Of a DNA stretch of 64,000 bases, positions 3,127 through 63,490 are shown piece after piece. Below the pieces are notes generated by a model. It had not been told where the DNA came from. It saw only the letters and a program-made list of their open reading frames with translations, and did not search any database. The first letter of the stretch is position 1, and each line of letters opens with the position of its first letter. This stretch comes from Sphingobacteriales bacterium (GTDB lineage: Bacteria > Bacteroidota > Bacteroidia > Chitinophagales > Chitinophagaceae), in the NCBI GenBank assembly GCA_004295245.1, contig REAR01000069.1, forward strand, positions 9,587-73,586, in the 5' to 3' direction. Made by a program: the position numbers and the translations under genes.

Positions 3127-3330
3127 GATGGCCCAGCATTTTATCCACTAATCAACATCGTTGCGTCGCACACTTCAGCGAAAGAATAAAAGATGGAAAG
3201 TTGGAAAGTCCTGGAGATGCTTACACAAATCACTCAAGTCTTTCCAACTTCTCTTATTGCTGACTTACCGACGTATTGCACAAGTGTGCGACGCAACGGC
3301 TGCTTAATAGTAGTACCAAGGCTGGTTACC
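3127..3330. repeat. Dispersed inverted-repeat element (GCGTCGCAC family), paired arms
   Basis: The left core GTTGCGTCGCACACTT is at 3160-3175 and the right core AAGTGTGCGACGCAAC is at 3282-3297. The right terminal repeat GCTGGTTACC is at 3321-3330, 9 nt from the stop of the upstream gene. There is also an internal GTTGGAAAG/CTTTCCAAC stem. Confidence 0.8.
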
Positions 3331-3338
3331 CAAAATTT

Positions 3339-6300
3339 TTACCGTATTATAGCAATATTGCCAGAGTACAAAAGAACTTGTTGATTTTCACATACTATTT
3401 CTACGGTATATACATACACATCGTTGGGTACGGCCTGTCCTTTGTAATTTCCATTCCATGCTTTTGTGGCATCGTTGGCAGTAAAGTTTCTTTGCTCAAA
3501 GAGGGTTTCTCCCCAGCGGTTAAATACCCGCATAGATTTTATGTTGTATAGGCCTGTGCCTCTTGGGTAAAAAAGGTCGTTATTACCATCTCCGTTAGGC
3601 GAGAAGGTGTTGGGGAAATACACATTGCCATTGTTACAGACCACGTAGATAGTTACCTCATCGGTTGTGGCGCAACCGCCCTCATTAACTGCGGTAATTT
3701 TATAGGTAGTGGTTTGTTTGGGTGTAGCCACCGGGTTAGGGCAGGTAACACAACTTAATCCAACAGCGGGCCGCCACTGGTAATTGCTGGCATCTGCAAT
3801 GGTTGCATTTAATTGTGTATTGGTGCCAACAGAAATGGTTACATCTTTACCCGCATCTGCAATGGGTACGGGATATACCACTACTTGCACATACCCGGTA
3901 TCGTAAAAGCAGCGCATGCTATCGTAGCCAATTACTCGGTAATTGGTGGTTTGTTGTGGTCTTGCCACCGGGTTTTTTGTAAAGGCATTATCTAAACCAA
4001 TTGCCGGAGACCACTCATAGTTTTCTGCATCACCTGCAAACAATTTGAAAGATTCTCCTTTGCATAAGGTATCGCCCGGCCCCACTTGCATTACAAATGG
4101 GTGTTTTACACGTACGAAAACAGAGTCTGTCGCTTCGCATCCAAAGTTTGTTTTTCCGGTTACATAAAACATCATATCTGTAATAGGAGCCGCCATTGTT
4201 ATAGCACAATCTGTACAAGAAAGTGCGGGTGAAGGATACCATGTATAGGTGCTGGCTCCCGTTGCCTGTAACGTAAGCGTTTTGTTTTCACAAATGGTGG
4301 CATTTAGCCCGGCATCAGTTTTGGGTAGCGGATACGCTGTAACTGTTTTGGTGCGGGTAGTTATACAACCTGATAAATTAGTTACGGTAAGAGAAATAGT
4401 ATAGTCACCCTCTTGCTGGTAAGTAATATCTGGCGGATTTTGTAAATCAGAGCTGGTGCCGTTTCCAAAATCCCATAACCAGCTAAGGGTAGTGGTATCA
4501 CTTAATAGGTTATCTCCAAAAATAGTAAGTGTTGCTGGCGCACATGCACCAGAGTCGCCTCTAAGTAGTACTTGGGGGCTGCTAACTATTTTAATGTCGG
4601 TTATTTGTTTCGATGTATCAGTGCAACCAAACACGGAGGTAGCAATGAGTTGTACAGAATATATGCCTGGGGTATTATATACATGCTGTGGATTTTTTTG
4701 ATTGGAGGTATTTCCGTCTCCAAAATTCCAGCTATAAGAAACAATTTGATCATTTGAGGTGGAGTTGTCTGAAAAAACAACAAGCCCCGAATCGCAAAAG
4801 ATTGCTTTACTGGTATTAAAAATAGCCTCCACACCAAATATTCTGATGGTGTCTTTTCCAAGTATAGGCACTTTACATCCCTGCAGATCTTCTAGTATCA
4901 TACGTGGTACATATACACCCATTGATGAGTAGGTGTGTGTTACTATAGAATCAGTACTTAAGTAAGTTTCACCATCATTATAATCCCATATAAACGAGCT
5001 TGTATTTTGAGTAATTGCTTTAAATTGAATGTCGGCTGGTTTACACGCATCTGTTTTATCGTATGTAAATATTCCGGTAGGGCCTTCCACCACAATTTTT
5101 TTAGTAAGCGTATCGGTGCACCCGCCCGGGCTGGTAACTATCAAGCGGGCATAATAGGTACCGGGGTAATTATAGTAATGCTCTGGGTTAGAAAGGGTAG
5201 AACCGGTACCGTCTCCAAAGTTCCAATCAAAATACCTGAAGTATGTAGATTGATTGGTAAATCGTACGATCAATGGCGGACAGGTTCCTACAGAGTCGCT
5301 CATTGTAAAAAGGGCTTTCGGTTCATCAATATTTATGTAAGTGGGTAAAGTAACAGAGTCTTTACAGCCATACCCATCAGTAATTGTAAGCTTTATATCA
5401 TATACTCCATTAGCAAGGTATCTGTGAGTAGTGTTATTTACAGCACCCGTAGCGCCATCACCAAAATCCCAAATAGAACGTATGGAGGGCCCTTGTGAGG
5501 TATTGATAAAACGTACCAGACTGTTTTTACAACTTAAAGTATCGGGGCTAAAAAAACTTGCTTTAGGGTCTGATATATATACATGGTTTGTTTTTTTGAT
5601 GGTATCTGAGCAACCAAATGCATCTGTTATTTTTAATGACACATTATAAAAACCAGGGTTTGAATAGTAATGACTAAAAGGAGGTGTATTAAAAGCTTGT
5701 GTAACCCCATCTCCAAAATTCCACGTCCATGTGCTAATGGCATTTCTTCCATCCGTTAGAGATGAATCGTTGAAATTAATGATGGGCATATTATTATAAC
5801 AAGCCGATTTATTAATTGCTCCGAAGTTTGCAGTGGGGCCGTTTACGGTTATGTAATTTAACTTGGTAATAGTATCTCTGCAACCCAGAATATTAGTGGT
5901 AATAAGTGTTATGCTATAAAGGCCCGCTTTGTTAAACGAAATTTTTGGGTTTCGGGCAGTATCTGTTTTATTGTTATATTTCCACAGATAGTAAACAATA
6001 TTTCTTGAATTATAATTAAACGGCTCAAGTGTCAGAGAATCTCCTTTACAGATACTGGTAGTGCTGGCCGTGAAATCCGGGTTTTCATCAATTATCCGTG
6101 CATAGTATGAGGTGCTATGTGTGCAAGTGTCATTGCTAACTGTTAGCACCACTAAATATGTGCCTGGTGCGGTATATGTATGCACCGGGTTTTTAACGTT
6201 AGAGGTTGTACCATCACCAAAATCCCAAATATGAGAAGTAGCTCCGATAGACCGATCGGTAAAGAAATATTTGAATGGGTTATTACAATTAAAAAGTGCC

Positions 6301-6908: not shown

Positions 6909-8219
6909 TTACGCTAAATGATCCTTCTTTAGTGTAACGCTAAATGATCCTTCTTTAGTGTAAATATGAATTGGATTTTCCAGGTCTGATGAATCACCGT
7001 CTCCAAAATACCATTTATAATTTATGCCGGATGTAGAAATGTTTGTAAACTGTACACTAAAGGGGGCACTGCAGCTATTGGTTGCAGAAGAGTTAAAGCC
7101 CATCACAGGTTTGGGTATAACATTTATAGTTTTTGTTGCGGTATCGCGGCAAGAACCAAAATCGGTTATAAGTTTTATAATATAACTGCCACTGCTAGCG
7201 TAGCTTTTTGAGGCCACAGAGTCTGTCGACGTGTTGCCATCTCCAAAACGCCAAATAAAGTTAGTGTTATATGGTATAGTGGTATTAACAGCTTTAAAAA
7301 TTTCTTTTTCACAAATACTATCCGGTATAATAAACGAAGAACGGGCAATACCAATTAAAATTGAATCAGTTTTTATGAGAGTATCTGCGCATCCGGCATT
7401 ATTCGTAGTTATCAGCTGCACAGTATATTTGCCTGCATTTAAATAAGTGTTTGATGGGTTGGCATTAGTGGAAGTAGTGCCATTTCCAAAATCCCATTTA
7501 TAAGAGAGTATACCTGTGCCGGTACTATTATTGGTAAAGTTTACTACTGCCGGCGGGGAGCACAGATTAGATGTAACAAAAGAAAAATCGGCAACTGCAC
7601 CGCCGTTAATTTTTATATACTTCTGTTTTGAAATTGTTTTTACACAACCCGCTGCATTGGTTACTCTTAAAATAACATTATAGCTGCCTGCCGTTAAATA
7701 AGTATGTACAGGGTTCTTTAAAGTAGAGAGCGTACCATCCCCTAAATCCCATTCCCATTGCACAATATCGCCTTCATTGGCTATGCTCTCATCTGTAAAT
7801 TGTACGTTTAATGGATAACAACCAACGGTATCAGATGCTTTAAAAGAAGGGGTAGGCAGGGCGTTTACAATTATGTATTGTGTTTTAATTATTGAATCGG
7901 CAGTACCTGATGCGTTTTTTACCACTAATTTAATGGTGTACATGCCGGGTGTAAAGTATGTAGTTGATGGGTTTTGTAAGTATGAAACAGTACCGTTGCC
8001 TAAATTCCACTTCCAGTAGTTGGGTTTTCCAATTTCGCCCTCGCGGCTATCCCAAGTAGAGGCATCTTTGAAGCTTACAAATAATGGGGCGCAACCACTT
8101 AATGGGGTAGCTGTAAAGTCTGCTCTTAATTGTGCAGTAAGCCTATTACTTAAACTAATAAAGAACAGCAATACTAATAAGGCACGGGGCACAAAGGCCC
8201 TTTTGGTTTTCATACGCAA
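6909..8219 (-). CDS. PKD-repeat protein, N-terminal fragment of the same disrupted gene (carries the signal peptide)
   Basis: The 436-aa ORF starts MRMKTKRAFVPRALLVLLFFISLSNRLTAQ, a signal peptide, and contains about 5 PKD repeats. It ends at a TAA created inside the second copy of the 26-bp duplication. Confidence 0.85.
   Translation of the reverse strand: MRMKTKRAFVPRALLVLLFFISLSNRLTAQLRADFTATPLSGCAPLFVSFKDASTWDSREGEIGKPNYWKWNLGNGTVSYLQNPSTTYFTPGMYTIKLVVKNASGTADSIIKTQYIIVNALPTPSFKASDTVGCYPLNVQFTDESIANEGDIVQWEWDLGDGTLSTLKNPVHTYLTAGSYNVILRVTNAAGCVKTISKQKYIKINGGAVADFSFVTSNLCSPPAVVNFTNNSTGTGILSYKWDFGNGTTSTNANPSNTYLNAGKYTVQLITTNNAGCADTLIKTDSILIGIARSSFIIPDSICEKEIFKAVNTTIPYNTNFIWRFGDGNTSTDSVASKSYASSGSYIIKLITDFGSCRDTATKTINVIPKPVMGFNSSATNSCSAPFSVQFTNISTSGINYKWYFGDGDSSDLENPIHIYTKEGSFSVTLKKDHLA
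6911..6962. repeat. Perfect 26-bp tandem duplication (2 copies) inside PKD coding sequence
   Basis: ACGCTAAATGATCCTTCTTTAGTGTA at 6911-6936 is repeated exactly at 6937-6962. The length is not a multiple of 3. Confidence 0.95.
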
Positions 8220-8595: not shown

Positions 8596-8649
8596 TGCCC
8601 TTGAACCGAGCGTGGCAACAATGCTGCCCTTTTTACAAATGCTGGTGCC
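8596..8649. repeat. Diverged copy of the dispersed element (GAGCGTGGCAAC variant)
   Basis: TTGAACCGAGCGTGGCAACAATGCTGCCC is followed by GCTGGTGCC. It closely resembles 30222-30270. Confidence 0.5.
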
Positions 8650-8684
8650 AAAAAAAATCTCCTGCCATGGCAAGAGATTTTTTT
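8650..8684. terminator. Bidirectional terminator hairpin downstream of ssb
   Basis: The stem AAATCTC..GAGATTT has an inner TGCC/GGCA pairing and is flanked by an A-run and a T-run. It lies about 25 nt after the ssb stop. Confidence 0.7.
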
Positions 8685-9130: not shown

Positions 9131-9249
9131 ACTTAATAAATTTAGCTTCGTAATTAAAATTGTTTAGACGGGCAATTTAAAGCTAAAACCCAATACCACC
9201 ATACCACTTTATGGTAGTTTTTGCGGGTGTGGAAAATTTTGTAGAAGTG

Positions 9250-9300
9250 GGCATTGTTGCAAAGGTCGGCAGCCGTTGCGTCGCACCCTGCAACAGTGGT
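9250..9300. repeat. Dispersed element, solo core of the CACCCT subtype
   Basis: GGCAGCCGTTGCGTCGCACCCTGCAAC at 9268-9294 sits within the stem CATTGTTGCA (9252-9261) / TGCAACAGTG (9289-9298). Its exact reverse complement is at 21444-21470. Confidence 0.8.
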
Positions 9301-13198: not shown

Positions 13199-14557
13199 AT
13201 GGCAGCAGCACCAACATTATCGCATTTACAGGTAAGTATAACCAACCGGCAAATACTGGGTATTGCGTTGCCTATTACATTATCACTAATAGTGCCTCAG
13301 TTAAATTTTATTACCAATAATATTTTTCTGGGTAGCCTTGGAGAAAAAGAGTTGGGCAATGCCGGCATTACCGGTGTTTATTACCTCATTGTAGCTGTGG
13401 TGGGTAATGGCTTAAACAATGCCATACAATCACTCATCAGCCGCAACGCCGGCAAAGGAGATATTAAGGCAATAGACGTAATACTAATGCAAGGTATGCG
13501 CATTGCATTGTTATTTGCCTTAGCGGGTATTGCTTTTACCTGGGTGGTTACCCCTTATATTTTAAAACCATTTGCTGCGCCAGAAAGCTTTGCTGCAGAA
13601 ATGCAGTTTTTAAAAATACGCGTATTGGGCCTGCCTTTTTTATATCTCTTTCAAATGGGCAATGCGTTTTTGGTAGGCACTTTAAACAGTCGCTATTTAC
13701 TATTAGGTACCATTGTAGAAGCGGGTGCAAATATTTTGTTTGATTATCTTTTTATTTTTGGGCATGCCGGTTTTCCGCAACTGGGTTTTAATGGTGCTGC
13801 TGTTGCTTCTGTTATTGCAGAGGTAGTAGGCTTATTAGCTGTAACCGGTGTAATTTTTAGTTTAGGGTTAAAAAGAAAATTTCATCTGTTTACGCATTGG
13901 CAGTTTAATAAAAAAGTTAATAAATCCATTACCAATATTGCGGCCCCTCTGGTATTACAATACGTTATCAGCTTAACTACCTGGTTGGTTTTTTTTGTAA
14001 TGATAGAAGGTTATGGAGAACGTGCCAAAGCCATTAGTAATACCATGCGCAATGTATTTGGTGTGGTGGGGATTTTTATATGGGCTTTTGCCAGCACCAC
14101 TAATACCATGGTTAGTAATTTAATTGGGCAGGGCAAACAAGATAAAGTGCTTTATGCCATTAAGCGGGTAATGTTGTTAAGCTTTTTGTTTGCCAGTGTA
14201 GTGGCAGTGCTGCTCAATGTTTTTCCACACCTTTTTTTAAGTGTATTTGCGCAAGGAGAAAATTTTATTGCCGATGCTATACCCGTAATGCGTATGGTAA
14301 CCGCCGGTATGCTTTGTATGAGTGTGGCTTCAGTGTGGCTAAATGGCTTAACCGGTACCGGCCAAACACGTGTTAATGTGTTGGTAGAGATAGCCGCTAT
14401 TTTACTTTATCTTCTTTACAATTGGATCATCATTTACCACCTCAAATGGTCTTTAGCGGCTGCCTGGGGCAACGAAATTGTTTATTGGGTGGTAATCTTC
14501 ATTATTGCATTTATTTATTTGCGCAGCGAGAAATGGAAGGGAAAAATTATTTTGTAA
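13199..14557 (+). CDS. MATE family efflux transporter
   Basis: The protein is polytopic (~12 TM). The N-terminus ITNRQILGIALPITLSLIVPQLNFITNNIFLG is typical of MATE. The start is placed at the ATG at 13199 (MAAAPT). Confidence 0.8.
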   Translation: MAAAPTLSHLQVSITNRQILGIALPITLSLIVPQLNFITNNIFLGSLGEKELGNAGITGVYYLIVAVVGNGLNNAIQSLISRNAGKGDIKAIDVILMQGMRIALLFALAGIAFTWVVTPYILKPFAAPESFAAEMQFLKIRVLGLPFLYLFQMGNAFLVGTLNSRYLLLGTIVEAGANILFDYLFIFGHAGFPQLGFNGAAVASVIAEVVGLLAVTGVIFSLGLKRKFHLFTHWQFNKKVNKSITNIAAPLVLQYVISLTTWLVFFVMIEGYGERAKAISNTMRNVFGVVGIFIWAFASTTNTMVSNLIGQGKQDKVLYAIKRVMLLSFLFASVVAVLLNVFPHLFLSVFAQGENFIADAIPVMRMVTAGMLCMSVASVWLNGLTGTGQTRVNVLVEIAAILLYLLYNWIIIYHLKWSLAAAWGNEIVYWVVIFIIAFIYLRSEKWKGKIIL

Positions 14558-14663
14558 CCAGCTTTAGAATTATTGATTTGAAATTTCAAATAGGAAACTT
14601 TAAATATCAAATGCTCAAGTGTGCGACGCAAGGATGCCGAATAATGTTATATGGCTGGTTACA
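14553..14663. repeat. Dispersed element (111 bp) with perfect 10-bp terminal inverted repeats and a single core
   Basis: TGTAACCAGC at 14553-14562 pairs with GCTGGTTACA at 14654-14663. The core AAGTGTGCGACGCAAG is at 14618-14633, and the internal perfect palindrome ATTTGAAATTTCAAAT is at 14576-14591. The MATE stop codon TAA (14555-14557) lies inside the left terminal repeat. Confidence 0.85.
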
Positions 14664-14697
14664 TAAAAAAACACCCACATGGTAGCGGGTGTTTTTT
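14664..14697. terminator. Bidirectional terminator between the MATE gene and fba
   Basis: The stem ACACCC/GGGTGT is flanked by an A-run and a T-run. Confidence 0.65.
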
Positions 14698-18222: not shown

Positions 18223-18262
18223 AAAAAATATAACACGCTAAAGTTACAGCAATTTATTTTTT

Positions 18263-18380
18263 TGTTATCAGCAGTATATCGCTATTCGCCATCGTTGCGT
18301 CGCACACTTCAACATTTGATATTTGAAGTTTCTGATTTGAAATTTCAAATATCAAGTCAAAAATTTTACAGCTGGTTATT
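18263..18380. repeat. Dispersed element with a single core, the same subfamily as 14553-14663 in opposite orientation
   Basis: TGTTATCAGC is at 18263-18272 and GCTGGTTAT at 18371-18379. The core GTTGCGTCGCACACTT is at 18294-18309. An 18-mer identical to that in the other element, TGATTTGAAATTTCAAAT, is at 18333-18350. Confidence 0.85.
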
Positions 18381-21334: not shown

Positions 21335-21443
21335 TTATTCATTTATGCAGTTGGCAAATCTAATTGTTCTGCTTCTTTAGGGCTAAATAGCTATCCTATA
21401 ATTATCCACACAAAGGAGTTTAACGGTTGAAATGCGTGCAACT

Positions 21444-21470
21444 GTTGCAGGGTGCGACGCAACGGCTGCC
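21444..21470. repeat. Dispersed element, solo core of the CACCCT subtype (reverse orientation)
   Basis: GTTGCAGGGTGCGACGCAACGGCTGCC is the exact reverse complement of 9268-9294. Confidence 0.85.
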
Positions 21471-21497
21471 CAATAGCCTTGCCACCGCCGGCCCCAA

Positions 21498-21528
21498 TAA
21501 AAAACCCCTGCATTTTTTGCAGGGGTTT
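21498..21528 (-). terminator. Terminator downstream of atpG
   Basis: The stem CCCCTGCA/TGCAGGGG has a T5 loop and is followed on the minus strand by a T-rich run. Confidence 0.75.
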
Positions 21529-22429: not shown

Positions 22430-22453
22430 AATGTAGCGAGTTTTATTTTATGA

Positions 22454-22520
22454 AACCAGCCATTGCACTGCCTTCAGCAGCCGTTGCGTCGCACCCTTCA
22501 ACCGAAGTGCGGGGCTGGCC
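22454..22520. repeat. Dispersed element, solo core of the CACCCT subtype
   Basis: CAGCCGTTGCGTCGCACCCTTCA at 22478-22500 has its exact reverse complement at 37143-37165. The outer AACCAGC / GCTGG arms are present. Confidence 0.8.
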
Positions 22521-25636: not shown

Positions 25637-25705
25637 CAGTTGCAGGACGCGTTGCAGTACAAGTGTGCGACGCAAGGATGCTGGGCTGCTTGCTGCCGCT
25701 GGTAC
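25637..25705. repeat. Dispersed element, solo core
   Basis: The core AAGTGTGCGACGCAAG is at 25661-25676 and the terminal GCTGGTAC at 25698-25705. It lies in the divergent region upstream of secA. Confidence 0.75.
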
Positions 25706-25851
25706 TATTAATAACTAACTGCATAAAAACCAGCTTCTAAAAACTGGAAACTGTTTTTTACCTTTGTGCCCCTGTCAATTTGGCCATAACTGTGTTGTAG
25801 CATCTTTTTTGACGAGGAGAAAACCATTAAGACCAAAATAATAAAGTTTTT

Positions 25852-31100: not shown

Positions 31101-31399
31101 TGCTAAAGAAAGACGATATAAAATTAGGCCTTGTATTAGGGTTACTTACTCCCTTACTGGGGCTTATTATTTACTATTTTGTTGCCTTTTACAGCCGCAA
31201 CGTAGGGTTCATAGAATTTCTGGGCTTTTTAAAACAATATAAAAGCCTGTTAACTGCTGTTAGCAGCATTTCTTTAGTTGCTAATGCGGTACTCTTTACT
31301 TTTTATGTAAATGCCCGCAAAGACAAAACCCTCCGTGGCATTTTTATTGCAACCATTATTTATTGTATAGCCGTATTGGTTATAAAACTAGTAGGGTAG
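31088..31399 (+). CDS. Small hypothetical membrane protein
   Basis: The 103-aa protein has three hydrophobic segments and overlaps the surE stop by 13 nt. The true start may be the ATG at 31100. Confidence 0.5.
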   Translation: MEIVMLKKDDIKLGLVLGLLTPLLGLIIYYFVAFYSRNVGFIEFLGFLKQYKSLLTAVSSISLVANAVLFTFYVNARKDKTLRGIFIATIIYCIAVLVIKLVG

Positions 31400-31402
31400 T
31401 TT

Positions 31403-31470
31403 TAACCAGCAGCAGCAAAAAGCCCGGCATCGTTGTGTCACTCACTTGTACCACAACACTACATTGGGCA
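31403..31470. repeat. Diverged copy of the dispersed element (GTTGTGTCACTCACTTGTAC variant)
   Basis: The terminal TAACCAGCAG is present. AAAGCCCGGCA plus the core at 31432-31451 matches the 20-mer core at 38682-38701. Confidence 0.65.
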
Positions 31471-36894: not shown

Positions 36895-36900
36895 AAAATA

Positions 36901-37983: not shown

Positions 37984-38658
37984 ATGAAAAGACTTGACCC
38001 CAGTCAACCCATAAGAGTAGCAATTGCAGATGACCACGCACTGTTTCGTGCCGGCGTAAAAACCGCATTGTCTGTTCGTAAAGACATTGAAATGGTTGCG
38101 GAAGCTGACAATGGTATGCAGCTATTGAATCTGTTAAAACACATTACCCCCGATGTGATTTTGCTGGACATTCAGATGCCCATTATGGATGGTATTGCAA
38201 CACTACCAGAAATAAGAAGACTATACCCAGATATTAAAGTGGTAATGTTAAGTATGCATAACGATCACTCCATGATTAGTAAAATGATGGAGATTGGTGC
38301 AAATTCTTATTTAACCAAAAACAGCGATAGTGAAACTATTTATCAGGCAATAAAAACCTGTGCAGAACAAGAGTTCTTCTTTAACGATTTAACTAATAAG
38401 GCACTTTTAAGTGGTTTGCGTACTAAAAAGCCAGAGCATGGTATAGAAGACATTCAGCTAAGCGAGAAAGAAATACGCATTCTTAAACTGATGTGTGAAG
38501 AGAAGACCACTAAAGAAATTGCAGATATTGTAGATATTAGTCCAAGAACTGTAGAAGCCATTCGCGATAAATTGAAATCTAAAACCGGTGCAAAAAGTAT
38601 GGCAGGGCTGGTAATGTATGCCGTTAAAAACGGAATATTAGCAGAAGAAGGTAACTAG
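37984..38658 (+). CDS. NarL/LuxR-family response regulator (REC + HTH), with no adjacent kinase
   Basis: The motifs are IRVAIADDH and PDVILLDIQMPIMDG, with a C-terminal LuxR HTH (LSEKEIRILKLMCEEKTTKEIADIVDISPRTVEAIR). Confidence 0.9.
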   Translation: MKRLDPSQPIRVAIADDHALFRAGVKTALSVRKDIEMVAEADNGMQLLNLLKHITPDVILLDIQMPIMDGIATLPEIRRLYPDIKVVMLSMHNDHSMISKMMEIGANSYLTKNSDSETIYQAIKTCAEQEFFFNDLTNKALLSGLRTKKPEHGIEDIQLSEKEIRILKLMCEEKTTKEIADIVDISPRTVEAIRDKLKSKTGAKSMAGLVMYAVKNGILAEEGN

Positions 38659-38667
38659 CCATCGCAC

Positions 38668-38725
38668 AAAGCCCGGCAGTGGTTGTGTCACTCACTTGTA
38701 CATTTTGTTGGCATAGCAGCCACAC
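38668..38725. repeat. Diverged copy of the dispersed element (GTTGTGTCACTCACTTGTAC variant)
   Basis: AAAGCCCGGCA is followed by the core at 38682-38701, identical to 31432-31451. Confidence 0.65.
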
Positions 38726-43459: not shown

Positions 43460-43473
43460 AAAATAAATTTATG

Positions 43474-43642
43474 AAACCGGCGGTAGCAATAATGACGGCA
43501 GTGGTTGCGTCGCACCTGTTAACAGCATATCATTATTCAGCAATATAAATACCGTACAATAAATAAACAATTGGTTGCATAACGTGTTATAGTATAAGTG
43601 TGCGACGCAAGAATGTTGAACACGGTACTATTGCTGATTACA
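43474..43642. repeat. Dispersed element, paired arms
   Basis: The left core GGTTGCGTCGCACCTGT is at 43503-43519 and the right core AAGTGTGCGACGCAAG at 43596-43611. The terminal GCTGATTACA is at 43633-43642. Confidence 0.8.
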
Positions 43643-43660
43643 AAAAAATAAAAACTACTA

Positions 43661-46662: not shown

Positions 46663-46683
46663 AATTGATCTGTTTTAGTTTTT

Positions 46684-46785
46684 TGTTGCCAGCAGTTGCG
46701 CTTTGTGCAGCATTTGTTGCGTCGCACACTTCAGCTGAAAAGTGCGACGCAACGATGCTATATAGCATTACTACTGCTGGTTACC
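46684..46785. repeat. Dispersed element, compact paired form, between xylB and xylA
   Basis: GCATTTGTTGCGTCGCAC, a 14-nt loop and GTGCGACGCAACGATGC form an approximately 17-bp stem (cores at 46716-46731 and 46738-46752). The outer arms are CCAGCAG / CTGCTGG. The element ends 4 nt from the xylB stop. Confidence 0.85.
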
Positions 46786-46788
46786 TGT

Positions 46789-48390: not shown

Positions 48391-49293
48391 ATGGCTAAAC
48401 GCCCATTAATAGAAAAACTCACGTTAACAGAAGATGCTTCTTTTTTGGCCAGAACCTATTGCACCCCCCAATTTGAAGTGCCGTGGCACCAACATTTAGA
48501 AACCGAAATAATTTTATTTAACGAAGGCGAGGGCACTGCTTTTATTGGTAATTATATAGGTCATTTTAAAAGCGGTGATGTGTTTGTAATGGGTGCCAAC
48601 CTGCCGCATATGTTTCAAAACTCAAGAGCCGAAATGAAAGTGAGTGCCACGGTAATACAGTTTACGGCCAATTTTTGGGGTACTCTTTTTTTAGAATTGC
48701 CAGAAGCAAAACCTATACAACAGTTATTGCAAACAGCTTTGCAGGGCCTGCGTTTAGAAGGAGATTGTTTATATCAATTGCAGCGGCTGTTGCCGCAGTT
48801 AGAAAATGCACAGGGTTTTCAGCGGATTATTTTGTTATGCCAATGCCTGCAGCAAATAGCCAGCACCCGTCAGTTTGTAAAAGTATCTACCCAAGAAGTA
48901 AAATCATTAAACAGTAAGCAAAGAGAGCGTATCGATAAAGTGTATCAATACACGTTCAGTAATTTTCAGGAACTGATTGCTTTAAACACCATTGCCGGCA
49001 TTGCAGATATGAGTGTGCCCGCCTTTTGTAATTACTTTAGAAAAAGCACCAAAAAAACCTATATCGATTTTTTAAATGAAGTACGTATTGGTTACGCCTG
49101 CCGCCAGTTAATGGAAACACAAAAAAACATAGAAGCCATTGGTTACGAAAGCGGGTTTAATACGCTGGCTAATTTTAATAAGCAGTTTTTAAAAATAAAG
49201 AAAATAAACCCCAGCCAGTTTAGGCGGCAATACAGCCGTGCGGTAACCGCAGCATTGGCCCCCACGCAGGATGCAGTACGCAGTTTTGAATAA
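48391..49293 (+). CDS. AraC-family transcriptional regulator (cupin N-terminus + HTH), divergent from xylBA
   Basis: The 300-aa protein has a C-terminal AraC HTH (IAGIADMSVPAFCNYFRKSTKKTYIDFLNEVRIGYACRQL...GFNTLANFNKQF). Confidence 0.85.
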   Translation: MAKRPLIEKLTLTEDASFLARTYCTPQFEVPWHQHLETEIILFNEGEGTAFIGNYIGHFKSGDVFVMGANLPHMFQNSRAEMKVSATVIQFTANFWGTLFLELPEAKPIQQLLQTALQGLRLEGDCLYQLQRLLPQLENAQGFQRIILLCQCLQQIASTRQFVKVSTQEVKSLNSKQRERIDKVYQYTFSNFQELIALNTIAGIADMSVPAFCNYFRKSTKKTYIDFLNEVRIGYACRQLMETQKNIEAIGYESGFNTLANFNKQFLKIKKINPSQFRRQYSRAVTAALAPTQDAVRSFE

Positions 49294-49300
49294 TTTTTTT

Positions 49301-49494
49301 TGTAGCCAGCTTTGGTGTTTCATAGCAGCAGTGGTTGCGTCGCACACTTGTGCACACTTGTGCAGTGGAATGTTTATGGTCCATGGTATATAGTTAATGA
49401 TATTGCCATGTACCATGCACTATTGCCTATTGGCATCTTGCCGTACAAGTGTGCGACGCAACGATGCCCAATAGTACTACTACTGCTGGCTACA
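49301..49494. repeat. Dispersed element, complete 194-bp copy with perfect 10-bp terminal inverted repeats
   Basis: TGTAGCCAGC at 49301-49310 pairs with GCTGGCTACA at 49485-49494. The cores are at 49334-49349 and 49447-49462. A 10-bp tandem duplication, CACACTTGTG x2, lies at 49342-49361. Confidence 0.9.
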
Positions 49495-49497
49495 TAA

Positions 49498-50601
49498 TTA
49501 TTGCAAGGCCTGCTCTAAATCAGCCAATATATCCTGCACGTTTTCTATACCAATACTCATGCGTATCAATCCATCGGTAAACTTTTTACCGGCTGTTAAG
49601 CCGTCTTTTAATTCCATACTCATCATGGGGCCGGGGTGGCGCATTTGTTTGGCGCTAACATAATAATCCGGGTGGTCGGGCAGGCCATTATAATTAACTT
49701 GGGCAACAGCGGGGTGGTCTTGCAGGTAATGGGCAATTTCCATAGCGTTATGGCAATGGCGTTCCATACGCAGTTCCAGTGTTTTCATACCCAATGTAAG
49801 CAGGTAAGCATCAAAGGCATTGCTGTTGCCACCCAGCAGGCGATACCACTTGGTCATTTTGGTATTCATAAACTCAAGGTCTTTACCCAACAGTACGCCG
49901 CCTATAGCAGTACCATGCCCATTTAAAAATTTTGTGGTGCTATGAAAAACATAATCCACACCGTAGCGAAACGGTTGTTGCAGGTAAGGTGTGGCAAACG
50001 TATTGTCTACCGAAACACCGGTATTGTATTTTTTGGCAAGGGTAGTAAGTTCTTCAATATCCACACACTGTATGGTGGGGTTGGCAGGCGTTTCTAAATG
50101 CATCCATTTGATGCCGGGGTTGTTTTTAAAAACAGCTTCAGCTTTATTTAAATCACGCAGGTCTTCTATAATTATTTCAATACCCATGGGCGGTAAAATT
50201 TTATGCAACAGCTCATGCGTGCCGCCATAGAGCGAGTAGTGAGAAAGTACTTTATCGCCTTGTTGCAGATTAGAAAGAAAGAGGGTGGTCATGGCTGCCT
50301 GGCCACTGCTGTGTAAAAAAGCTTTTAGTTGCAGCGGGCTGCCGTTGGCATGGGTAATACCCAAACTTTCAAATGCTGCAATTTTTGCTTCTGCCTCGGT
50401 AAAATTAGGGTTGCCCCAGCGGGTGTATATATAACCTTCTTCTTTATTGGCAAAACGGCGCATGCCCTGCTCTGCATTATCAAACGTAAAAGTAGAAGTG
50501 GCATAAATAGGCGTTAGGTGAGAAGATAGCGGATCGTTTTGATGCCCGCCATGAACACCAACAGAACTAAAACCGGTTAATGGAAAATTTTTTGCAGCCA
50601 T
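49498..50601 (-). CDS. Cys/Met-metabolism PLP-dependent enzyme (methionine gamma-lyase / O-acetylhomoserine sulfhydrylase-like), apparently with an in-frame C-terminal deletion
   Basis: The 367-aa protein has the PLP-lysine motif HSTTKFLNGHG. The C-terminus reads ...ELKDGLTAGKKFTDGLIRMSIGIE, so the conserved SLGG-ESL-HPA-MTH block normally found between these segments is missing. Confidence 0.75.
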   Translation of the reverse strand: MAAKNFPLTGFSSVGVHGGHQNDPLSSHLTPIYATSTFTFDNAEQGMRRFANKEEGYIYTRWGNPNFTEAEAKIAAFESLGITHANGSPLQLKAFLHSSGQAAMTTLFLSNLQQGDKVLSHYSLYGGTHELLHKILPPMGIEIIIEDLRDLNKAEAVFKNNPGIKWMHLETPANPTIQCVDIEELTTLAKKYNTGVSVDNTFATPYLQQPFRYGVDYVFHSTTKFLNGHGTAIGGVLLGKDLEFMNTKMTKWYRLLGGNSNAFDAYLLTLGMKTLELRMERHCHNAMEIAHYLQDHPAVAQVNYNGLPDHPDYYVSAKQMRHPGPMMSMELKDGLTAGKKFTDGLIRMSIGIENVQDILADLEQALQ

Positions 50602-50681
50602 AACTGAGATTGAATTTATTTTGTTGTTGTAATTACCACAACAAATATCTTTTTAATCTTCTAAACCCACAGTAAAAAATT

Positions 50682-51176
50682 ATGAAAGAACTGCTGCAAC
50701 AATATGCTGCTTACAATGTGTGGGCCAATCAAAAATTGCTGGAAGTAGTATTAAAGCTGCCGGAGGAAAGCTGGCACCAAAAAATTGCCAGCAGTTTTCC
50801 TTCTTTACACACTACTGTTTTGCATATGTGGGATGCAGAAAGCATGTGGTGGCAGCGTATGAAAATGCAGGAAGTGGTAACCCGCCCCAGTGATCAGTTT
50901 AAAGGCACTACCCGAGATGCTATTACTGCGTTGCAACACCAAAACAGGCTGTGGCAGGAGTGGGTGAACGGCACCAGCCCTGCCATGTTAGACCATGTGT
51001 TTCAGTATTACGATACCAAGCGCAATCATTATAAGCAGCCTATATACCAGATGCTGCACCATGTAATGAACCACGGCACTTATCACCGCGGCCAAATTGT
51101 TACCTTATTACGTCAGTTAGGAGAAACCAAAATACCTGCTACCGATTTTGTAGTGTGGGCCAGGCTAAAGAAATAA
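50682..51176 (+). CDS. DinB family protein
   Basis: The 164-aa protein has YNVWANQKLLEV and HVMNHGTYHRGQI (His triad pattern). Confidence 0.8.
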   Translation: MKELLQQYAAYNVWANQKLLEVVLKLPEESWHQKIASSFPSLHTTVLHMWDAESMWWQRMKMQEVVTRPSDQFKGTTRDAITALQHQNRLWQEWVNGTSPAMLDHVFQYYDTKRNHYKQPIYQMLHHVMNHGTYHRGQIVTLLRQLGETKIPATDFVVWARLKK

Positions 51177-51884
51177 TTATTTTCCATTAACTGATTTACC
51201 CAGCTTGCTGCTAATATCTTCCAACGATATTTTATTAGCGTCTATTTTAATAAAAAACTGGCTGTAGTTTTTGATGTCGTTATTTACAGAAACAATAAAG
51301 CTATCAATAATTGGTTCGTTCTTTAGTGAATCGTATTTTCCGGAAGTGCCGAGGAAAGAGATAATATTGGTTTGCACTTTATCGTATAAAATATATTGTT
51401 TGAAATTGTTTTCATAATTCTCTTGCTGGCTGAGGCTTACCGACATGATGCCAAAAAAAGTAGAAATGGCAAAAAGAATAAAGAAGAGGGTTTTGATTAA
51501 AGCATTGGTATCTTCCCACCCCTTTTGAATGATTACAAAAAGCAATACAGCCGCTAAAATAGTAGATACTGTAAGTAATACTGTAAAAGTGTAGTAGTTA
51601 GAATAATATACTTTCCCTAATTCTTTATGATGGCTTTTTAAGTTTTCGAGTGTGATGTATTGGGTTTTTATAGTGGCTACTTTTTGTAAGCCCAGGTTGG
51701 CAAAAGGCTTTTTGGTTACATAATCGCTACGGGTATTATTAAATGTTTGCAGGGGGTTGTATACCCGGTTGATAACGGCATACATTGTTTTAAGGGAAAT
51801 AAACCCCAGTATAATAAAAAGCAGCACCACCAAAATACCAGCAACCAGGGGTTGGCGTATGGTTGCATCAAACTTCTGCCACAT
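51177..51884 (-). CDS. Hypothetical membrane protein
   Basis: The protein has several hydrophobic segments and no family I can name. The start is placed at the ATG at 51884 (MWQKFDA) rather than the GTG at 51935. Confidence 0.5.
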   Translation of the reverse strand: MWQKFDATIRQPLVAGILVVLLFIILGFISLKTMYAVINRVYNPLQTFNNTRSDYVTKKPFANLGLQKVATIKTQYITLENLKSHHKELGKVYYSNYYTFTVLLTVSTILAAVLLFVIIQKGWEDTNALIKTLFFILFAISTFFGIMSVSLSQQENYENNFKQYILYDKVQTNIISFLGTSGKYDSLKNEPIIDSFIVSVNNDIKNYSQFFIKIDANKISLEDISSKLGKSVNGK

Positions 51885-51964
51885 AAGCTTTGTTTTACTA
51901 AAGGTAGTGAGGCAGTAACCATTAAAAAATACCACAAACAGGGAAGCGTGCTAAAACAAGTTGT

Positions 51965-52966
51965 TTAATACTCCCACTTCACTAAAGTAGCGCCCCAGGT
52001 AAAGCCTCCACCAAAAGCAGCCAGCACCAGGTAATCGCCTTTATTAATTTGTTTGCGGTACTCCCACAAACATAATGGAATGGTAGCCGCTGTGGTGTTG
52101 CCATAACGTTCTATATTCATCATTACTTTATCGTGCGATAAACCAATACGGTTGGCGGTTGCGTCTATAATACGTTTGTTGGCCTGGTGCGGTACCAGCC
52201 AGGCAATATCATCGCCGGTCATGTTGTTACGCTCTAATAATTCCGCACTCACATCGGCCATGCCTTTTACGGCAAATTTAAAAACGCTTTGTCCTTCCTG
52301 GTAAGCAAAATGTTCTTTATTGGTAACGGTTTCAATACTGGCAGGCTTTAAAGAACCGCCAGCTTTCATATGCAGGTAGGGGCGGCCACTGCCGTCTGCC
52401 CTTAATAAGCTGTCTAATACGCCAAAGCCATCATGGTTGGGTTCCAGCAGCACACCAGCCGCCGCATCGCCAAATAAAATACAAGTAGTTCTATCGGTAT
52501 AGTCTACAATGGCACTCATTTTATCGGCACCCACCACCATTACTTTTTTGTAACGGCCGCTTTCTATTAAAGAAGCACCGGTGGTTAAGGCAAATAAGAA
52601 ACCAGAGCAGGCAGCGCCAATATCAAAACTCCAGGCGTTTTTAACACCGGCTTTATCGCAGGCAATATTAGCGGTTGCCGGAAATACCATATCGGGGGTA
52701 ACTGTAGCTACAATAACGCAATCAATTTCATCGGTACTGATGCCTCTTTTTTCACACAATTGTTTAATTACCGGTGCTACCATATCAGAGGTAGCAAGTC
52801 CTTCGCCTTTTAAAATGCGGCGTTCGCTAACGCCGGTGCGGGTGCGTATCCATTCATCAGTGGTATCTACCATTTTTTCAAGGTCGGCGTTAGTTAATTT
52901 ATCTTCTGGCACGTATCCGCCTACGGCTGTTATGGCGGCAGTTATTTTTGCGGGCTGTTGGTTCAT
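51965..52966 (-). CDS. fabH: 3-oxoacyl-ACP synthase III
   Basis: The motifs are [16 protein letters not shown] and GNTTAATIP. The start is placed at the ATG at 52966 ([21 protein letters not shown]). The longer ORF-track extension runs into a repeat element. Confidence 0.9.
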
Positions 52967-53046
52967 TGTACAGGTAATTGGTAAAAAATTTTGGTAAATG
53001 TAGGGCAATTTTTTGTACTGCTTTTTTATGCTTGTTAGCAAGGTTA

Positions 53047-53220
53047 TGTAACCGGCAGCAGTGCAGGTGGCGGCATTGTTGCGTCGCACACTTGTGCAGT
53101 TGGTAGTTTGTGGTCAATGGTTAATAAACAATAGTAAAAATTTATGAACTATGGTTTATTAACGCGTTACCGTACAAGTGTGCGACGCAACGATGTTGAA
53201 TAGCGTACCAAAGCTGGGTT
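53047..53220. repeat. Dispersed element, paired arms
   Basis: The terminal TGTAACCGGCAG is at 53047-53058. The cores are at 53078-53093 and 53176-53191, and the right end is AGCTGGGTT. Confidence 0.85.
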
Positions 53221-53254
53221 CATTATAACTTGTTTTACCTTATTTTCGCAACCT

Positions 53255-53839
53255 ATGATTGCATTTGTTAGAGGTTTATTTGTAAGAAAAAGTCCGGCCC
53301 AGGTTATTGTAGATGTAAACGGGGTGGGGTATGAGGTGCATATTAGCCTGAACACTTTTTCTGCTATTGAGGGCCAAACCGAAGGGTTGCTGCATACGTA
53401 CCTTCATATACGTGAGGATGCGCAGGTATTGTATGGTTTTGCTGAGCTGGCTGAGAAAGATATGTTTGTGCAATTGATAGGGGTAAATGGTATAGGTGCA
53501 GCAACGGCTAGGGTGATGCTGTCATCTATAAAACCTGCAGAAATTGCTACGGCCATTTTGCAGGGTAATGTAAAATTGCTGGAGAGCATTAAAGGTATTG
53601 GCAAAAAAACAGCAGAGCGCCTTGTTTTAGAGCTAAAAGATAAATTGCACAAGTTACCCGGCACTTTAAATAATGCATCGTTGGTAAGCAATAGTTTAGA
53701 GCAGGAAGCGTTAATTGCTTTAACTGCTTTGGGCATTGCCCGTTCGGCGGCAGAGCAGGCTGTAAAAAAAGTACTACAGTTAGGTGCTGCGCCGGAAAAA
53801 GTAGAAGATATTATTAAACAAGCATTGAAAATTATTTAG
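53255..53839 (+). CDS. ruvA: Holliday junction branch migration protein RuvA
   Basis: The 194-aa protein starts MIAFVRGLF...VDVNGVGYEV and has the HhH motifs LIGVNGIGAATA and IKGIGKKTAERL. Confidence 0.9.
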   Translation: MIAFVRGLFVRKSPAQVIVDVNGVGYEVHISLNTFSAIEGQTEGLLHTYLHIREDAQVLYGFAELAEKDMFVQLIGVNGIGAATARVMLSSIKPAEIATAILQGNVKLLESIKGIGKKTAERLVLELKDKLHKLPGTLNNASLVSNSLEQEALIALTALGIARSAAEQAVKKVLQLGAAPEKVEDIIKQALKII

Positions 53840-61148: not shown

Positions 61149-61222
61149 TTTTTTTTACAGGTAACCAGTAAGAAAAAATAGTTAATAAAATATTCTTACT
61201 GGCTTGCCGGCTATATATTTTT

Positions 61223-61366
61223 TGTAGCCAGCTTCAGTAAGCATAGCATCACCGTTGCGTCGCACACTTCAACTTTAGAACTACTGATTTAAGGTTTGAA
61301 ATTTAAAATTTCAAATGTACAAGTGTGCGACGCAACGATGATGCCCAAAGAACAACTGCTGGTACA
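61223..61366. repeat. Dispersed element, complete 144-bp copy
   Basis: TGTAGCCAGC is at 61223-61232 and GCTGGTACA at 61358-61366. The cores are at 61254-61269 and 61321-61336, and the centre is AT-rich (TTTGAAATTTAAAATTTCAAAT). Confidence 0.9.
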
Positions 61367-61421
61367 ATAAAATTTTTGTTGCCCCTAATACAGTAACTTA
61401 GATACCTATAAATATATTTTT

Positions 61422-63416
61422 ATGAAGCAATTGTTTTTTTGGCTAGCTGTTATAACCGTGCAGCAAACCATGGCACAAACAGATACCACCAGTTACTCGG
61501 TAATAATGGCGGGTAATATAAAAGGGTTTTCTAAAACATGGCAACTAACAGATGGCACTTATAGAGAATGGTACCAGTACAATGACAGAGGCCGCGGAGA
61601 TAGTATGGTTACTGATTACAAAACAGATGAAAAAAGTGTGATTACCTACCTAAGTGCTGCCGGGGTAGATTATATGAAGAACCCAGTAATAGAAAGTTTT
61701 TCTTTAACCAATGGGTTAGCACAATGGAAGAATAGTGCAGAGAACGAACAAAGAAAAATAAAAGGCCCTGCGTTTTTTATTCCGCTTAAAACAAATGCAG
61801 GCAATCTGGTAAAAGCTATATTAGATAATGGGGGCAGTTTAAACTTATTACCTACCGGTAAAGCAACTGCCAAAATTATTTTTAAAAGCACTTATACCGT
61901 TAATGGCAAAGCAAAAACACTGGCATTGGTAACCATAGAGGGTTTGGGTTTTACGCCTGCCTATATCTGGATAGAGGAAAACAGTCGTTCTTTTTTTGCC
62001 AATGTAAACGATTGGATGAGCATTGTATTAAAGGGCAACGAAGCATTGGTGCCGCAGTTGTTAACCATACAAAAGAAAGAGCAGGCACGATTTTATAATG
62101 TATTGGCCCAACGGCTGCGGCAAAAACCTGTAAAAGGTATTTGCATAAAAAATGTACAACTGTTTGATGCAGAAAAAGCAACAGTGATACCCAATGCCAC
62201 AGTAATTGTTCGTAATAATATTATAGCAGATGTTATTACCAGCGGCACTCCTTTTGTTAATGATGATTTGGAAGTGGTAGATGGGAAAGGCAAATTTTTA
62301 ATGCCCGGCTTGTGGGATATGCATACGCATATGAGTGATGAATTGGACGGCTTATTTCATATGGCTGCAGGGGTTACCAATATAAGAGATATGGGTAATG
62401 GGCCAGAGCTATTGCAACGGATGAAGGATATAAAAGAAGGAAAAATAATTGGTCCGGAGGAAGTTATTATAAGCGCATTTATTGATGGGGCTGGCCCATT
62501 TGCAGCACCCACGGGTGCGTTAATTAACAGTGTGGAAGAAGGGAAAAAAGTAATACAAGAATATGCGGCTAAGGGATACCAGCAAATAAAATTGTACAGC
62601 AGTATTAAACCAGAATGGGTAAAGCCACTGGTGGCAGAAGCCCGTAAATATAAAATGAAAGTATGTGGCCATATACCAGCATTTATGACGGCTACACAAG
62701 CAATAGAAGCCGGTTACAATGAAATTACACACATGAATATGCTGGTGTTAAATTTCTTTGGAGATACGGTGGACACCCGTTCTCCGAACCGGTTTAAATT
62801 ACCGGCACAAAAAGCAGCCTTCTTAGATTTAGAAGGGTATGAAGTGCAAAACTTTTTGCAATTATTAAAAGAAAAAAATATTGTAGTAGATCCAACATTG
62901 GGGGTGTTTGAAGGAATGTTTACAGACCGGGAAGGAAGTGTGGCAGAAAGTAATTTATTATTGGTAGACCGTATGCCTTTGCAGGTGCAGCGTTACTGGC
63001 GTGCGGGTGGTGGTGGGTTACCTGTACCCGATGGTATGAACGATACCTACCTGAAATCTTTTGACGTAATGCTGAAGATTTTAAAAATGTTGCACGACCG
63101 TGATATTACAATTGTGCCTGGCACCGATGGCTTTGCCGGTTTTATGTTACACCGGGAGCTGGAATTGTATGTACGTGCCGGTATACCTGCCAATGAAGTA
63201 TTGCAAATTTCAACACTGGTGCCAGCAAAAGTTACGGGTAAAGAAAAAGAATTGGGCAGTATTACTAAAGGAAAAATAGCCAATATGGTTTTAATAGATG
63301 GTAACCCCACTGTTAACATCAGCGATATTCGCAAAACAATACTGGTAATTAAAGAAGGTGTTATATACGACCCCGCAAAAATTTATGCAGCATTGGCTAT
63401 AAAAAATTATAAATAG
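61422..63416 (+). CDS. Secreted amidohydrolase family protein
   Basis: There is a signal peptide (MKQLFFWLAVITVQQTMAQ) and the metal-binding motif LMPGLWDMHTHM. The C-terminus is typical of the amidohydrolase fold (ANMVLIDGNP). Confidence 0.7.
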   Translation: MKQLFFWLAVITVQQTMAQTDTTSYSVIMAGNIKGFSKTWQLTDGTYREWYQYNDRGRGDSMVTDYKTDEKSVITYLSAAGVDYMKNPVIESFSLTNGLAQWKNSAENEQRKIKGPAFFIPLKTNAGNLVKAILDNGGSLNLLPTGKATAKIIFKSTYTVNGKAKTLALVTIEGLGFTPAYIWIEENSRSFFANVNDWMSIVLKGNEALVPQLLTIQKKEQARFYNVLAQRLRQKPVKGICIKNVQLFDAEKATVIPNATVIVRNNIIADVITSGTPFVNDDLEVVDGKGKFLMPGLWDMHTHMSDELDGLFHMAAGVTNIRDMGNGPELLQRMKDIKEGKIIGPEEVIISAFIDGAGPFAAPTGALINSVEEGKKVIQEYAAKGYQQIKLYSSIKPEWVKPLVAEARKYKMKVCGHIPAFMTATQAIEAGYNEITHMNMLVLNFFGDTVDTRSPNRFKLPAQKAAFLDLEGYEVQNFLQLLKEKNIVVDPTLGVFEGMFTDREGSVAESNLLLVDRMPLQVQRYWRAGGGGLPVPDGMNDTYLKSFDVMLKILKMLHDRDITIVPGTDGFAGFMLHRELELYVRAGIPANEVLQISTLVPAKVTGKEKELGSITKGKIANMVLIDGNPTVNISDIRKTILVIKEGVIYDPAKIYAALAIKNYK

Positions 63417-63421
63417 TTTTT

Positions 63422-63490
63422 TGTAACCGGCAGTTGTGCTTTGGGCAGTCCCGAAACTTCGGGATTGCGTCGCACACTTCAACATTTGTA
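63422..63490. repeat. Dispersed element, solo core
   Basis: The terminal TGTAACCGGCAG is at 63422-63433 and the core ATTGCGTCGCACACTT at 63465-63480. There is an inserted mini-hairpin, TCCCGAAACTTCGGGA. Confidence 0.8.

Follow-up and report, generated by a model that had tools for sequence, protein, structure and literature searches.

A small interspersed repeat of Chitinophagaceae and their phages, with a putative protein recognition site as its core

What are the short repeats that occupy the gene spacers of a Chitinophagaceae genome, how did they spread, and why is one small part of them, a 16-nt core, so much better conserved than the rest? These questions are raised by a stretch of 64,000 nucleotides from assembly GCA_004295245.1 (contig REAR01000069.1, positions 9,587 to 73,586; hereafter the window). 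An earlier note on this DNA had described a dense family of inverted repeats in it and had likened them to repetitive extragenic palindromic (REP) sequences and their paired form (REPINs), mobilised by REP-associated tyrosine transposases (RAYTs), or to miniature transposable elements with inverted repeats (MITEs). It is, on balance, probable that the family is an old, small, non-autonomous interspersed repeat of Chitinophagaceae, derived from a mobile element, and that its core is a putative protein recognition site. Three facts had been overlooked. What repeats is a directional unit of ~85 nt, which in other genomes is mostly found solo. Its range covers the whole of the Chitinophagaceae together with their phages, and conservation in place concerns the core only.

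The repeat unit, its pairs and its range

The exact 16-mer GTTGCGTCGCACACTT has ten matches in the window, where none is expected, and 23 matches are found at up to three mismatches, for an expectation of 0.38. The 21 occurrences of the core reported earlier are made up of these ten exact copies and of near copies; the places given for them are right, five being shifted by one base (correct starts 14617, 21448, 22483, 43504 and 63464). In the recognisable units, the 11-mer TTGCGTCGCAC is either perfect (21 copies) or heavily altered (four copies), which suggests that upkeep of the units needs an intact core. Both core subtypes, CACACTT and CACCCT, are present. The four diverged copies are genuine relatives of the repeat: those at 31432 and 38682 have an identical core variant, GTTGTGTCACTCACTTGTAC, and those at 8596-8649 and 30222-30270 have the variant ...CATCGTTGCCACGCTCG... 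in common. The terminal repeats are indeed perfect at 49301/49485 (TGTAGCCAGC/GCTGGCTACA) and at 14553/14654 (TGTAACCAGC/GCTGGTTACA), and the palindrome ATTTGAAATTTCAAAT is common to 14576 and 18335.

The family had been called strictly intergenic, and this description stands. Every window copy lies outside the genes supported by the gene calls of a sister assembly (GCA_013298065.1, contig JAAFJD010000003.1; 98.6-99.5% identical to the window). None of the 23 copies is inside a gene, although 88.6% of the window, the G+C content of which is ~40%, is coding and only 11.4% non-coding. The open reading frames (ORFs) that overlap copies (36968-37285, 38624-39010 and a 5′ extension of 51965-53089) are not called in the sister assembly. 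When genome loci from other genera are added to the window, 197 of the 208 core matches are outside crude ORFs.

The anatomy of the unit emerges from an alignment of 128 copies from other genera. On the 5′ side of the core GTTGCGTCGCACACTT, within which lies a 9-bp palindrome, TGCGTCGCA, it has, in order, a T-run, the head TGnnnCCRGC, a variable stretch of ~20 bases that includes CTATTnAGC, and a linker of 3-4 nt. Beyond the core come GTAC (or CAAC/CAGC), a variable stretch of ~10 bases and a second motif like CTATTCAGC, and the tail is variable. When a profile hidden Markov model was built solely from the foreign copies, nhmmer detected 20 units in the window with it at E < 1e-6, plus weaker remnants.

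Units stand either alone or paired tail to tail as inverted doublets, and a long hairpin is possible only in unit pairs. Close pairs are arranged '+ then -', with the T-runs outside, in 17 cases and '- then +' in one; none is in tandem. The six facing pairs seen previously in the window were found again, and a seventh, with a decayed arm, can be added (14543-14572 / 14604-14672). Folding of the elements, as had been suggested, gave z scores of -2.4 to -10.3 for the doublets. Pairing within them involves the heads and the cores only, the intervening arms being different, and the two arms of a pair are no more alike than unrelated copies. Ungapped pairwise arm identity among window copies is 29-45%, as compared with the 11-mer, identical in 21 of them. 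Pair arms of the window carry the exact 16-mer in 9 cases out of 12, versus one out of nine for the solo units (p = 0.0075). Among the copies from other genera, a set gathered by the exact core, most are solo units with a perfect core.

A search of related genomes for the core, also proposed in the earlier note, gave the exact 16-mer in more than 118 stretches from many Chitinophagaceae genera (Segetibacter, Flavihumibacter, Terrimonas, Sediminibacterium, Ferruginibacter, Flavisolibacter, Niastella, Puia, Limnovirga and others). The matches are almost confined to Chitinophagaceae / Chitinophagales genomes. As a negative control, 862 kb of other Bacteroidota xylB loci yielded 0-1 matches, weak; they came from a scan of metagenomes with xylB for close relatives, which gave only distant ones (69% identity or less), including relatives with XylB 57-69% identical. 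Density varies widely, from ~22 units in the 64 kb studied here (~1 per 3 kb) to none in many loci of related genomes. Two comparison stretches binned as 'Asaia bogorensis' (L013 and L072; L-numbers are labels of comparison stretches) carry typical units in a Chitinophagaceae-like context; their label or binning is probably wrong.

The exact 16-mer also occurs in 15 contig stretches of IMG/VR, most of which contain full units. Inspection showed two of these contigs to be genuine phages: they encode a major head-protease fusion, a tail sheath, a tape measure and a primase-helicase. In both of them, units fill gene spacers exactly, in either orientation. Among the IMG/VR stretches (L212-L230), full units are seen in the spacers of a myovirus-like structural module and of a replication module. 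The head of the phage units is 88% identical, versus 77% overall. The best doublet of the window had no match in a plasmid collection.

Past spread, retention of sites and constraint on the core

Presence and absence at orthologous sites, a check recommended earlier, is polymorphic between genera. In Paracnuella, the xylB-xylA spacer lacks the doublet and is ~50 bp long, as against ~126 bp with it here, and the unit downstream of secA is absent in L011. In the PTPS/folE operon, the window has a doublet between the genes for PTPS and FolE, and Sediminibacterium a unit between gene A and the PTPS gene. The nuoC-nuoD spacer is occupied in L021, L022 and L087, and empty in L065. Within the window, two subfamilies can be recognised. 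The units at 14604-14672 and 18254-18350 have their entire tail in common, and those at 31432 and 38682 have an identical variant central 40 nt with different outer parts. Lineage-specific sites, subfamilies, copies in phages and a hugely differing density together argue that the family multiplied in the past by copying into new intergenic sites; the signs of past duplication that had been pointed out are in keeping with this.

Other sites appear to have been kept since before the genera diverged. Among 118 randomly captured loci, the spacer between a tRNA gene and tuf has a unit at the same site and in the same orientation in at least five genomes. The same is true of nuoC-nuoD in three genomes. 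The site upstream of secA is occupied in two genomes (the window and L011) and the one downstream of the surE operon in three, in a form that is degenerate in the window and intact in L110 and L026.

On the strain timescale, no movement is seen. Every unit is in place in five further contigs from the same species complex (identity 96-99.9%, ~60 kb of the window covered). Only three structural changes were found among these strains: the 10-bp tandem duplication in the best doublet, an 11-nt hairpin beside one core, and a deletion in L211. This deletion (~145 bp) removed both cores of the 49.3 kb doublet and left both heads.

The comparison with sister strains also permits the core to be set against the rest of the unit. 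The core changed at one of 249 positions, as against 43 of 1415 for the rest of the units (Fisher p = 0.0098). Over the same comparison, 98 of 5706 positions changed in other non-coding DNA and 905 of 60439 in coding DNA. Taken comparator by comparator, the rate of change in the arms is about that of other non-coding DNA or slightly above. Because the arms drift like non-coding DNA and the core has a single change, only the core, of 11-16 nt, appears to be constrained in place, and the arms drift neutrally.

A second kind of observation concerns the core as a possible point of breakage. In phage L230, a 20-nt palindrome, CCTGCCTGCCGGCAGGCAGG, splits the core exactly at TTGCG^TCGCAC. Other split cores were searched for, and this single phage case is the only one. 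The L230 insert, along with the central tract common to 31432 and 38682, suggests that the core is a place of breakage and repair; an enzyme that cuts there would fit, although this is not proof of one. Small G+C-rich palindromes were met beside units elsewhere. L117 has, at ~3100, a near-identical copy of CCTGCCTGCCGGCAGGCAGG next to a unit (the L230 insert is at ~5500), and L024 has, at ~5650, the small palindrome CCCCAAAGGGG nested in or beside a unit. In the window, TCCCGAAACTTCGGGA stands at 63449-63464 in place of the CATCG linker, which is not so in strain L210. These tiny palindromes may form a second, very small repeat family.

A short palindromic core that persists unaltered in hundreds of diverged copies, whichever their orientation and in hosts as well as phages, is probably a protein recognition site. 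The core would then be the working part of the element, most likely bound or cleaved by a trans-acting protein that is conserved across Chitinophagaceae. This protein might have been the enzyme behind the former copying of the elements, and it perhaps still homogenises their centres by short-tract repair, a cut at the core being repaired from other copies. Alternatively, it might be a host DNA-binding protein that co-opted the elements, which would explain the constraint equally well. A more far-reaching version can be put forward only tentatively. Here, selection would maintain the core as the site that a protein conserved across Chitinophagaceae recognises or cleaves, and the repeats would be a domesticated system with hundreds of gene-boundary sites per genome, and sites in phages too. 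Selection, or else gene conversion over short tracts induced by breaks, would keep their centres identical, and repeat and protein would form a new partnership distinct from that of REP and RAYT.

Several points weigh against a mobile origin with a protein-recognised core. We infer the step to a protein from the behaviour of the core, the palindrome of which is only 9 bp long. The in-place test of the core comes down to one substitution in 249 positions over two or three sister lineages, and the loci from other genera were gathered by the exact 16-mer, so that core identity is there by construction. Occupancy of the same site across genera could instead reflect repeated insertion at hot spots. 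Among strains 96-99.9% identical, there is no insertion or excision polymorphism, only an internal deletion, which leaves current mobility unproven. Target-site duplications, a suggested check, were looked for on the outer flanks of the six doublets, where no consistent direct repeat was found; the exact ends are uncertain, as the T-run is perhaps part of the element. No transposase came out of a Pfam check of the ten most recurrent of 798 ORF clusters from the 118 loci and the window, and no autonomous parent element was found among the genes tested, which lie close to units or are bracketed by them (~0.9 Mb).

Competing explanations

The repeat might be an ordinary MITE, in which the doublets would be internally deleted insertion sequences (ISs) of the DDE type, the arms their terminal inverted repeats (TIRs) and the solo units broken halves; we regard this as unlikely. 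Like MITEs, of which Correia/NEMIS of Neisseria and RUP of Streptococcus are examples, the element is small, non-coding and non-autonomous, has inverted termini in its paired form and lineage-specific sites, and is found in phages. TIRs of 10 nt with long subterminal repeats are present in six to seven doublets, the centres of which are modular and variable. For small repeats of this kind (MITEs), sharing between hosts and phages has a documented precedent (bioRxiv 10.1101/2024.01.18.576219). However, most copies across genera are solo units, half-elements that have no inverted partner and in which sequence is conserved on either side of the core, and the arms of a pair differ from each other as they do from other copies. 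Dead MITEs should decay uniformly, yet here the core alone is conserved, and a MITE would not usually keep an exact 16-mer across many genera. To this must be added the results on target-site duplications, parent IS and transposase given above. The recurrent clusters that were checked are housekeeping genes (EF-Tu, NusG, L11, NuoC/D, ABC ATPases and others), and ten genes bracketed by pairs, likewise checked against Pfam, include PGK, PhoH, the AHAS small subunit and similar proteins, and no transposase. Of the MITE alternative raised at the outset, the polymorphism between genera is borne out, and TIRs are seen in doublets, with most copies across genera being solo; no target-site duplication, transposase or strain-level insertion polymorphism was found. 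The head seems to resemble IS3/IS150 ends and the core domain V of group II introns, likenesses that we take to be coincidental.

It is also rather improbable that the family is a host cis-element that was never mobile, for instance a site at gene boundaries for a nucleoid-associated or transcription-related protein, copied by phages for the same host factor. Such a view would account for a palindromic core constrained in place between neutral arms, for the same sites beside tuf, secA and nuoC-D across genera, and for the upkeep of units in compact phage genomes, with the better conserved head noted above. Against it, long non-core tails are common to subfamilies, which indicates that whole elements were copied, and different spacers of one operon are occupied in different genera. 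A density that ranges, between related genomes, from 1 per 3 kb to none in many loci is likewise hard to reconcile with a host site. Nor is there a bias by gene orientation or towards convergent or divergent spacers: relative to flanking genes, 68 units are antisense-tandem, 54 sense-tandem, 30 in divergent and 19 in convergent spacers. In addition, the -7 promoter motif of Bacteroidota is missing, and association with terminator hairpins does not go beyond ~10% of copies. With respect to replication, the solo units are five on the plus and four on the minus strand of one replichore.

Roles as promoter and as terminator were considered in their own right and rejected. The -7 motif TAnnTTTG was found in only two of 182 units, and sigma-54 and extracytoplasmic function (ECF) sigma factor spacings do not fit by inspection. 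A hairpin just before the T-run is seen in ~10-17% of copies, which is the rate on the control side. The order in doublets, with the T-run before the hairpin and an A-run after it, is that of an intrinsic terminator reversed.

The analogy with REP and REPIN sequences, first drawn in the earlier note, fares worse. According to it, the repeats would be mobilised by a RAYT, an HUH transposase of the Y1 type; unit pairs would be the replicating entity and would be recognised by a vertically inherited RAYT. This is, to our mind, very unlikely. The association of REP sequences, bacterial interspersed mosaic elements (BIMEs) and REPINs with RAYTs is reportedly established in other bacteria (Nunvar 2010; Bertels and Rainey 2011). 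The units share with them an extragenic location, a high copy number, inverted dimers that fold into larger hairpins, and conservation beyond that of the flanks. The more frequent retention of the exact 16-mer in pair arms also resembles the contrast between REPINs and singlets, and a highly conserved RAYT of 172 amino acids (aa) in Chitinophagaceae might account for a conserved core. REPs, however, are hairpins of 20-40 bp tagged by GTAG or CGTC (Di Nocera et al., 2013; PMC3733652). The single Chitinophagaceae unit has neither a hairpin nor a conserved tag: the GTAG/GTAA head seen previously belongs to a subset of copies only, the consensus being the T-run followed by TGnnnCCRGC, and CGTC sits inside the core instead of forming an end tag beside a stem of 8-9 bp. 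Moreover, solo units with perfect cores predominate in other genomes, in the set gathered by the exact core.

The folding results agree with this. In the 128 aligned units, RNAalifold finds no helix except five invariant pairs within the core, the mean z score of the segments before and after the core is ~0, and no complementary covariation was seen in the unit. A hairpin in the arm before the core, hinted at in L036, L044, L112 and a phage unit, was rejected as a general feature (z ~0, no covariation).

The search for a RAYT flanked by the same repeats, as recommended, led to another repeat. An Escherichia coli RAYT sequence gave, with tblastn, a weak match to a gene of Terrimonas sp. R1 (L047 6046-6843), which scores 84 bits with the NF047646 model of REP-associated tyrosine transposases (cut-off 80) and also matches Y1_Tnp of Pfam. 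Y1 probes returned, with tblastn, only this RAYT, the repeats of which are different. The 172-aa RAYT family has 1740 relatives, the best 120 of which are 68-95% identical to the query, and is named RayT or Chitinophagaceae transposase in several sources. Four RAYT genes (that of L047 and those of L201-L203, at 3001-3519) are flanked by a true short hairpin, CGCCG-N-GGTNGGTG-loop-CACCNACC (...CACC), which is also found at nearby intergenic sites. A profile scan of the RAYT flanks in L201-L203 found no unit within 3 kb, and the unit nearest to the L047 gene is ~4.4 kb away. The hairpin repeat resembles the unit in host family, intergenic location and repetition; it differs in sequence and in being a true short hairpin, is found clustered near RAYT genes and has no copy in the window. 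RAYT and its own hairpin repeats are, in Chitinophagaceae, a classical REP-RAYT pair, separate from the unit family.

Two last readings, as RNA (structured small RNAs or cis-regulatory motifs) and as DNA uptake sequences, are most improbable: doublets do fold well, and Neisseria likewise has inverted pairs of uptake sequences in its gene spacers, but Rfam at gathering threshold recognises tRNA-Ala alone in the window, and at permissive settings only chance-level matches over units in 43400-53400, the unit has no consensus structure or covariation, it lies in both orientations relative to transcription with no promoter motif, its conserved context reaches ~85 nt, beyond a short motif, and uptake sequences are frequent within genes, where none of the 23 copies is found.

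Catalogue of units, neighbouring observations and meaning for the family

The units of the window are collected in Table 1.

Table 1. Repeat units in the window, with strand and distinguishing features (E, nhmmer E value with the model from other genera only).
Position	Strand	Unit	Remarks
3129..3184	+	left arm of doublet 1	exact 16-mer core 3160-3175; E 1e-10
3256..3341	-	right arm of doublet 1	core 3282-3297; E 2e-16
8615..8659	-	diverged unit, variant core of GTTGCCACGCTCG type	E 0.011
9233..9286	+	solo unit, CACCCT subtype	core 9275-9290; near match and profile
14543..14572	+	head-only remnant of left arm, facing next unit	TGTAACCAGC at 14553
14604..14672	-	unit, core 14617-14632	tail common with 18.3 kb copy, including ATTTGAAATTTCAAAT
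18254..18350	+	solo unit, exact core 18294-18309	tail subfamily as 14604-14672
21423..21504	-	solo unit, CACCCT subtype	near match and profile
22440..22505	+	solo unit, CACCCT subtype	near match and profile
25639..25718	-	solo unit upstream of secA	site and orientation likewise occupied in distant genome L011
29231..29300	+	solo unit right after secA terminator hairpin	terminator T-run doubles as unit T-run; site empty in L011
30250..30285	-	diverged unit, variant core as in 8615-8659	E 0.006
31396..31455	+	unit, variant core GTTGTGTCACTCACTT, downstream of surE operon	intact units at site in L110, L026
37123..37203	-	solo unit upstream of tRNA-Ala	near match and profile
38650..38719	+	unit, variant central 40 nt as in 31396-31455	near match and profile
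43463..43544	+	left arm of doublet, PTPS-folE spacer	near match, profile, fold
43572..43652	-	right arm of PTPS-folE doublet	near match, profile, fold
46674..46785	.	compact doublet, xylB-xylA spacer	cores 46716+ / 46738-, 6-nt loop; absent in Paracnuella (L055)
49289..49353	+	left arm of best doublet	exact core; 10-bp tandem duplication GCACACTTGT at 49342-49351, within core region, not in sister assembly
49423..49501	-	right arm of best doublet	exact core; in L211 (96% identical), ~145 bp deleted between left head and arm
53043..53106	+	left arm of doublet, fabH-ruvA divergent spacer	exact core and profile
53154..53228	-	right arm of fabH-ruvA doublet	exact core and profile
61212..61285	+	left arm of doublet after sprA	exact core and profile
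61308..61376	-	right arm of sprA-side doublet	exact core and profile
63411..63504	+	solo unit	extra hairpin TCCCGAAACTTCGGGA (63449-63464) just 5′ of core; usual CATCG linker instead in L210

Some other features of the window deserve mention. A 106-bp tandem repeat at 36673-36933 (2.5 copies, 95% match), each copy of which consists of a fragment resembling the 3′ half of a tRNA and of a terminator-like hairpin, adjoins a tRNA-Ala gene that is intact (36901-36977, minus strand). One copy more is apparently present in the sister assembly, as the blast blocks overlap by 106 bp, and a further tRNA-like fragment lies at ~37003-37060. In the gene of a pyridoxal phosphate (PLP) enzyme of Cys/Met metabolism (49498-50601, 367 aa), an in-frame stretch of ~120 bp is missing at 49578-49580. 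This stretch is present in the sister assembly and in the 96%-identical strain, where the protein has 408 aa (L001 4181-4300, L209 and L211 were compared). Near the 3′ end of the gene at 6909-8219 (minus strand), 26 bp (6915-6940) are absent from L204 and L205, otherwise 99.3-99.7% identical; this difference would shift the frame at the C-terminus of the protein.

The earlier note had not recognised the family from any description, and neither did we: there is no match in Rfam, and no description was found in the literature searched (core sequence, RAYT/REP in Bacteroidetes, Chitinophaga REP, Bacteroidetes MITEs). REP sequences, enterobacterial repetitive intergenic consensus (ERIC) elements and MITEs are well studied in Proteobacteria. 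To our knowledge, interspersed intergenic repeats have hardly been described in Bacteroidota, and none in Chitinophagaceae. The closest in kind is ERIC, also called intergenic repeat unit (IRU), a single imperfect palindrome of ~127 bp from enterobacteria, with a conserved central core, a variable copy number and no known transposase. Both are family-wide intergenic repeats with a conserved core, a variable copy number and some orthologous sites. ERIC is, however, unrelated in sequence and belongs to another phylum, and the element described here is a directional, non-palindromic unit of ~85 nt that makes a palindrome only in pairs. Among bacterial interspersed intergenic repeats, a non-palindromic unit, a constraint on the core only and a range that takes in a bacterial family plus its phages are unusual.

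Chitinophagaceae are a major family of soil and freshwater, and in some of their genomes this repeat takes a large share of the non-coding DNA. One genome can hold a RAYT with its own hairpins beside an unrelated and far more abundant repeat, which calls for caution before every intergenic palindrome is assigned to RAYT. The units are a ready marker that links uncultured phages to Chitinophagaceae hosts. As the constrained core stands cleanly apart from the neutral arms, the search for a partner protein is directly testable.

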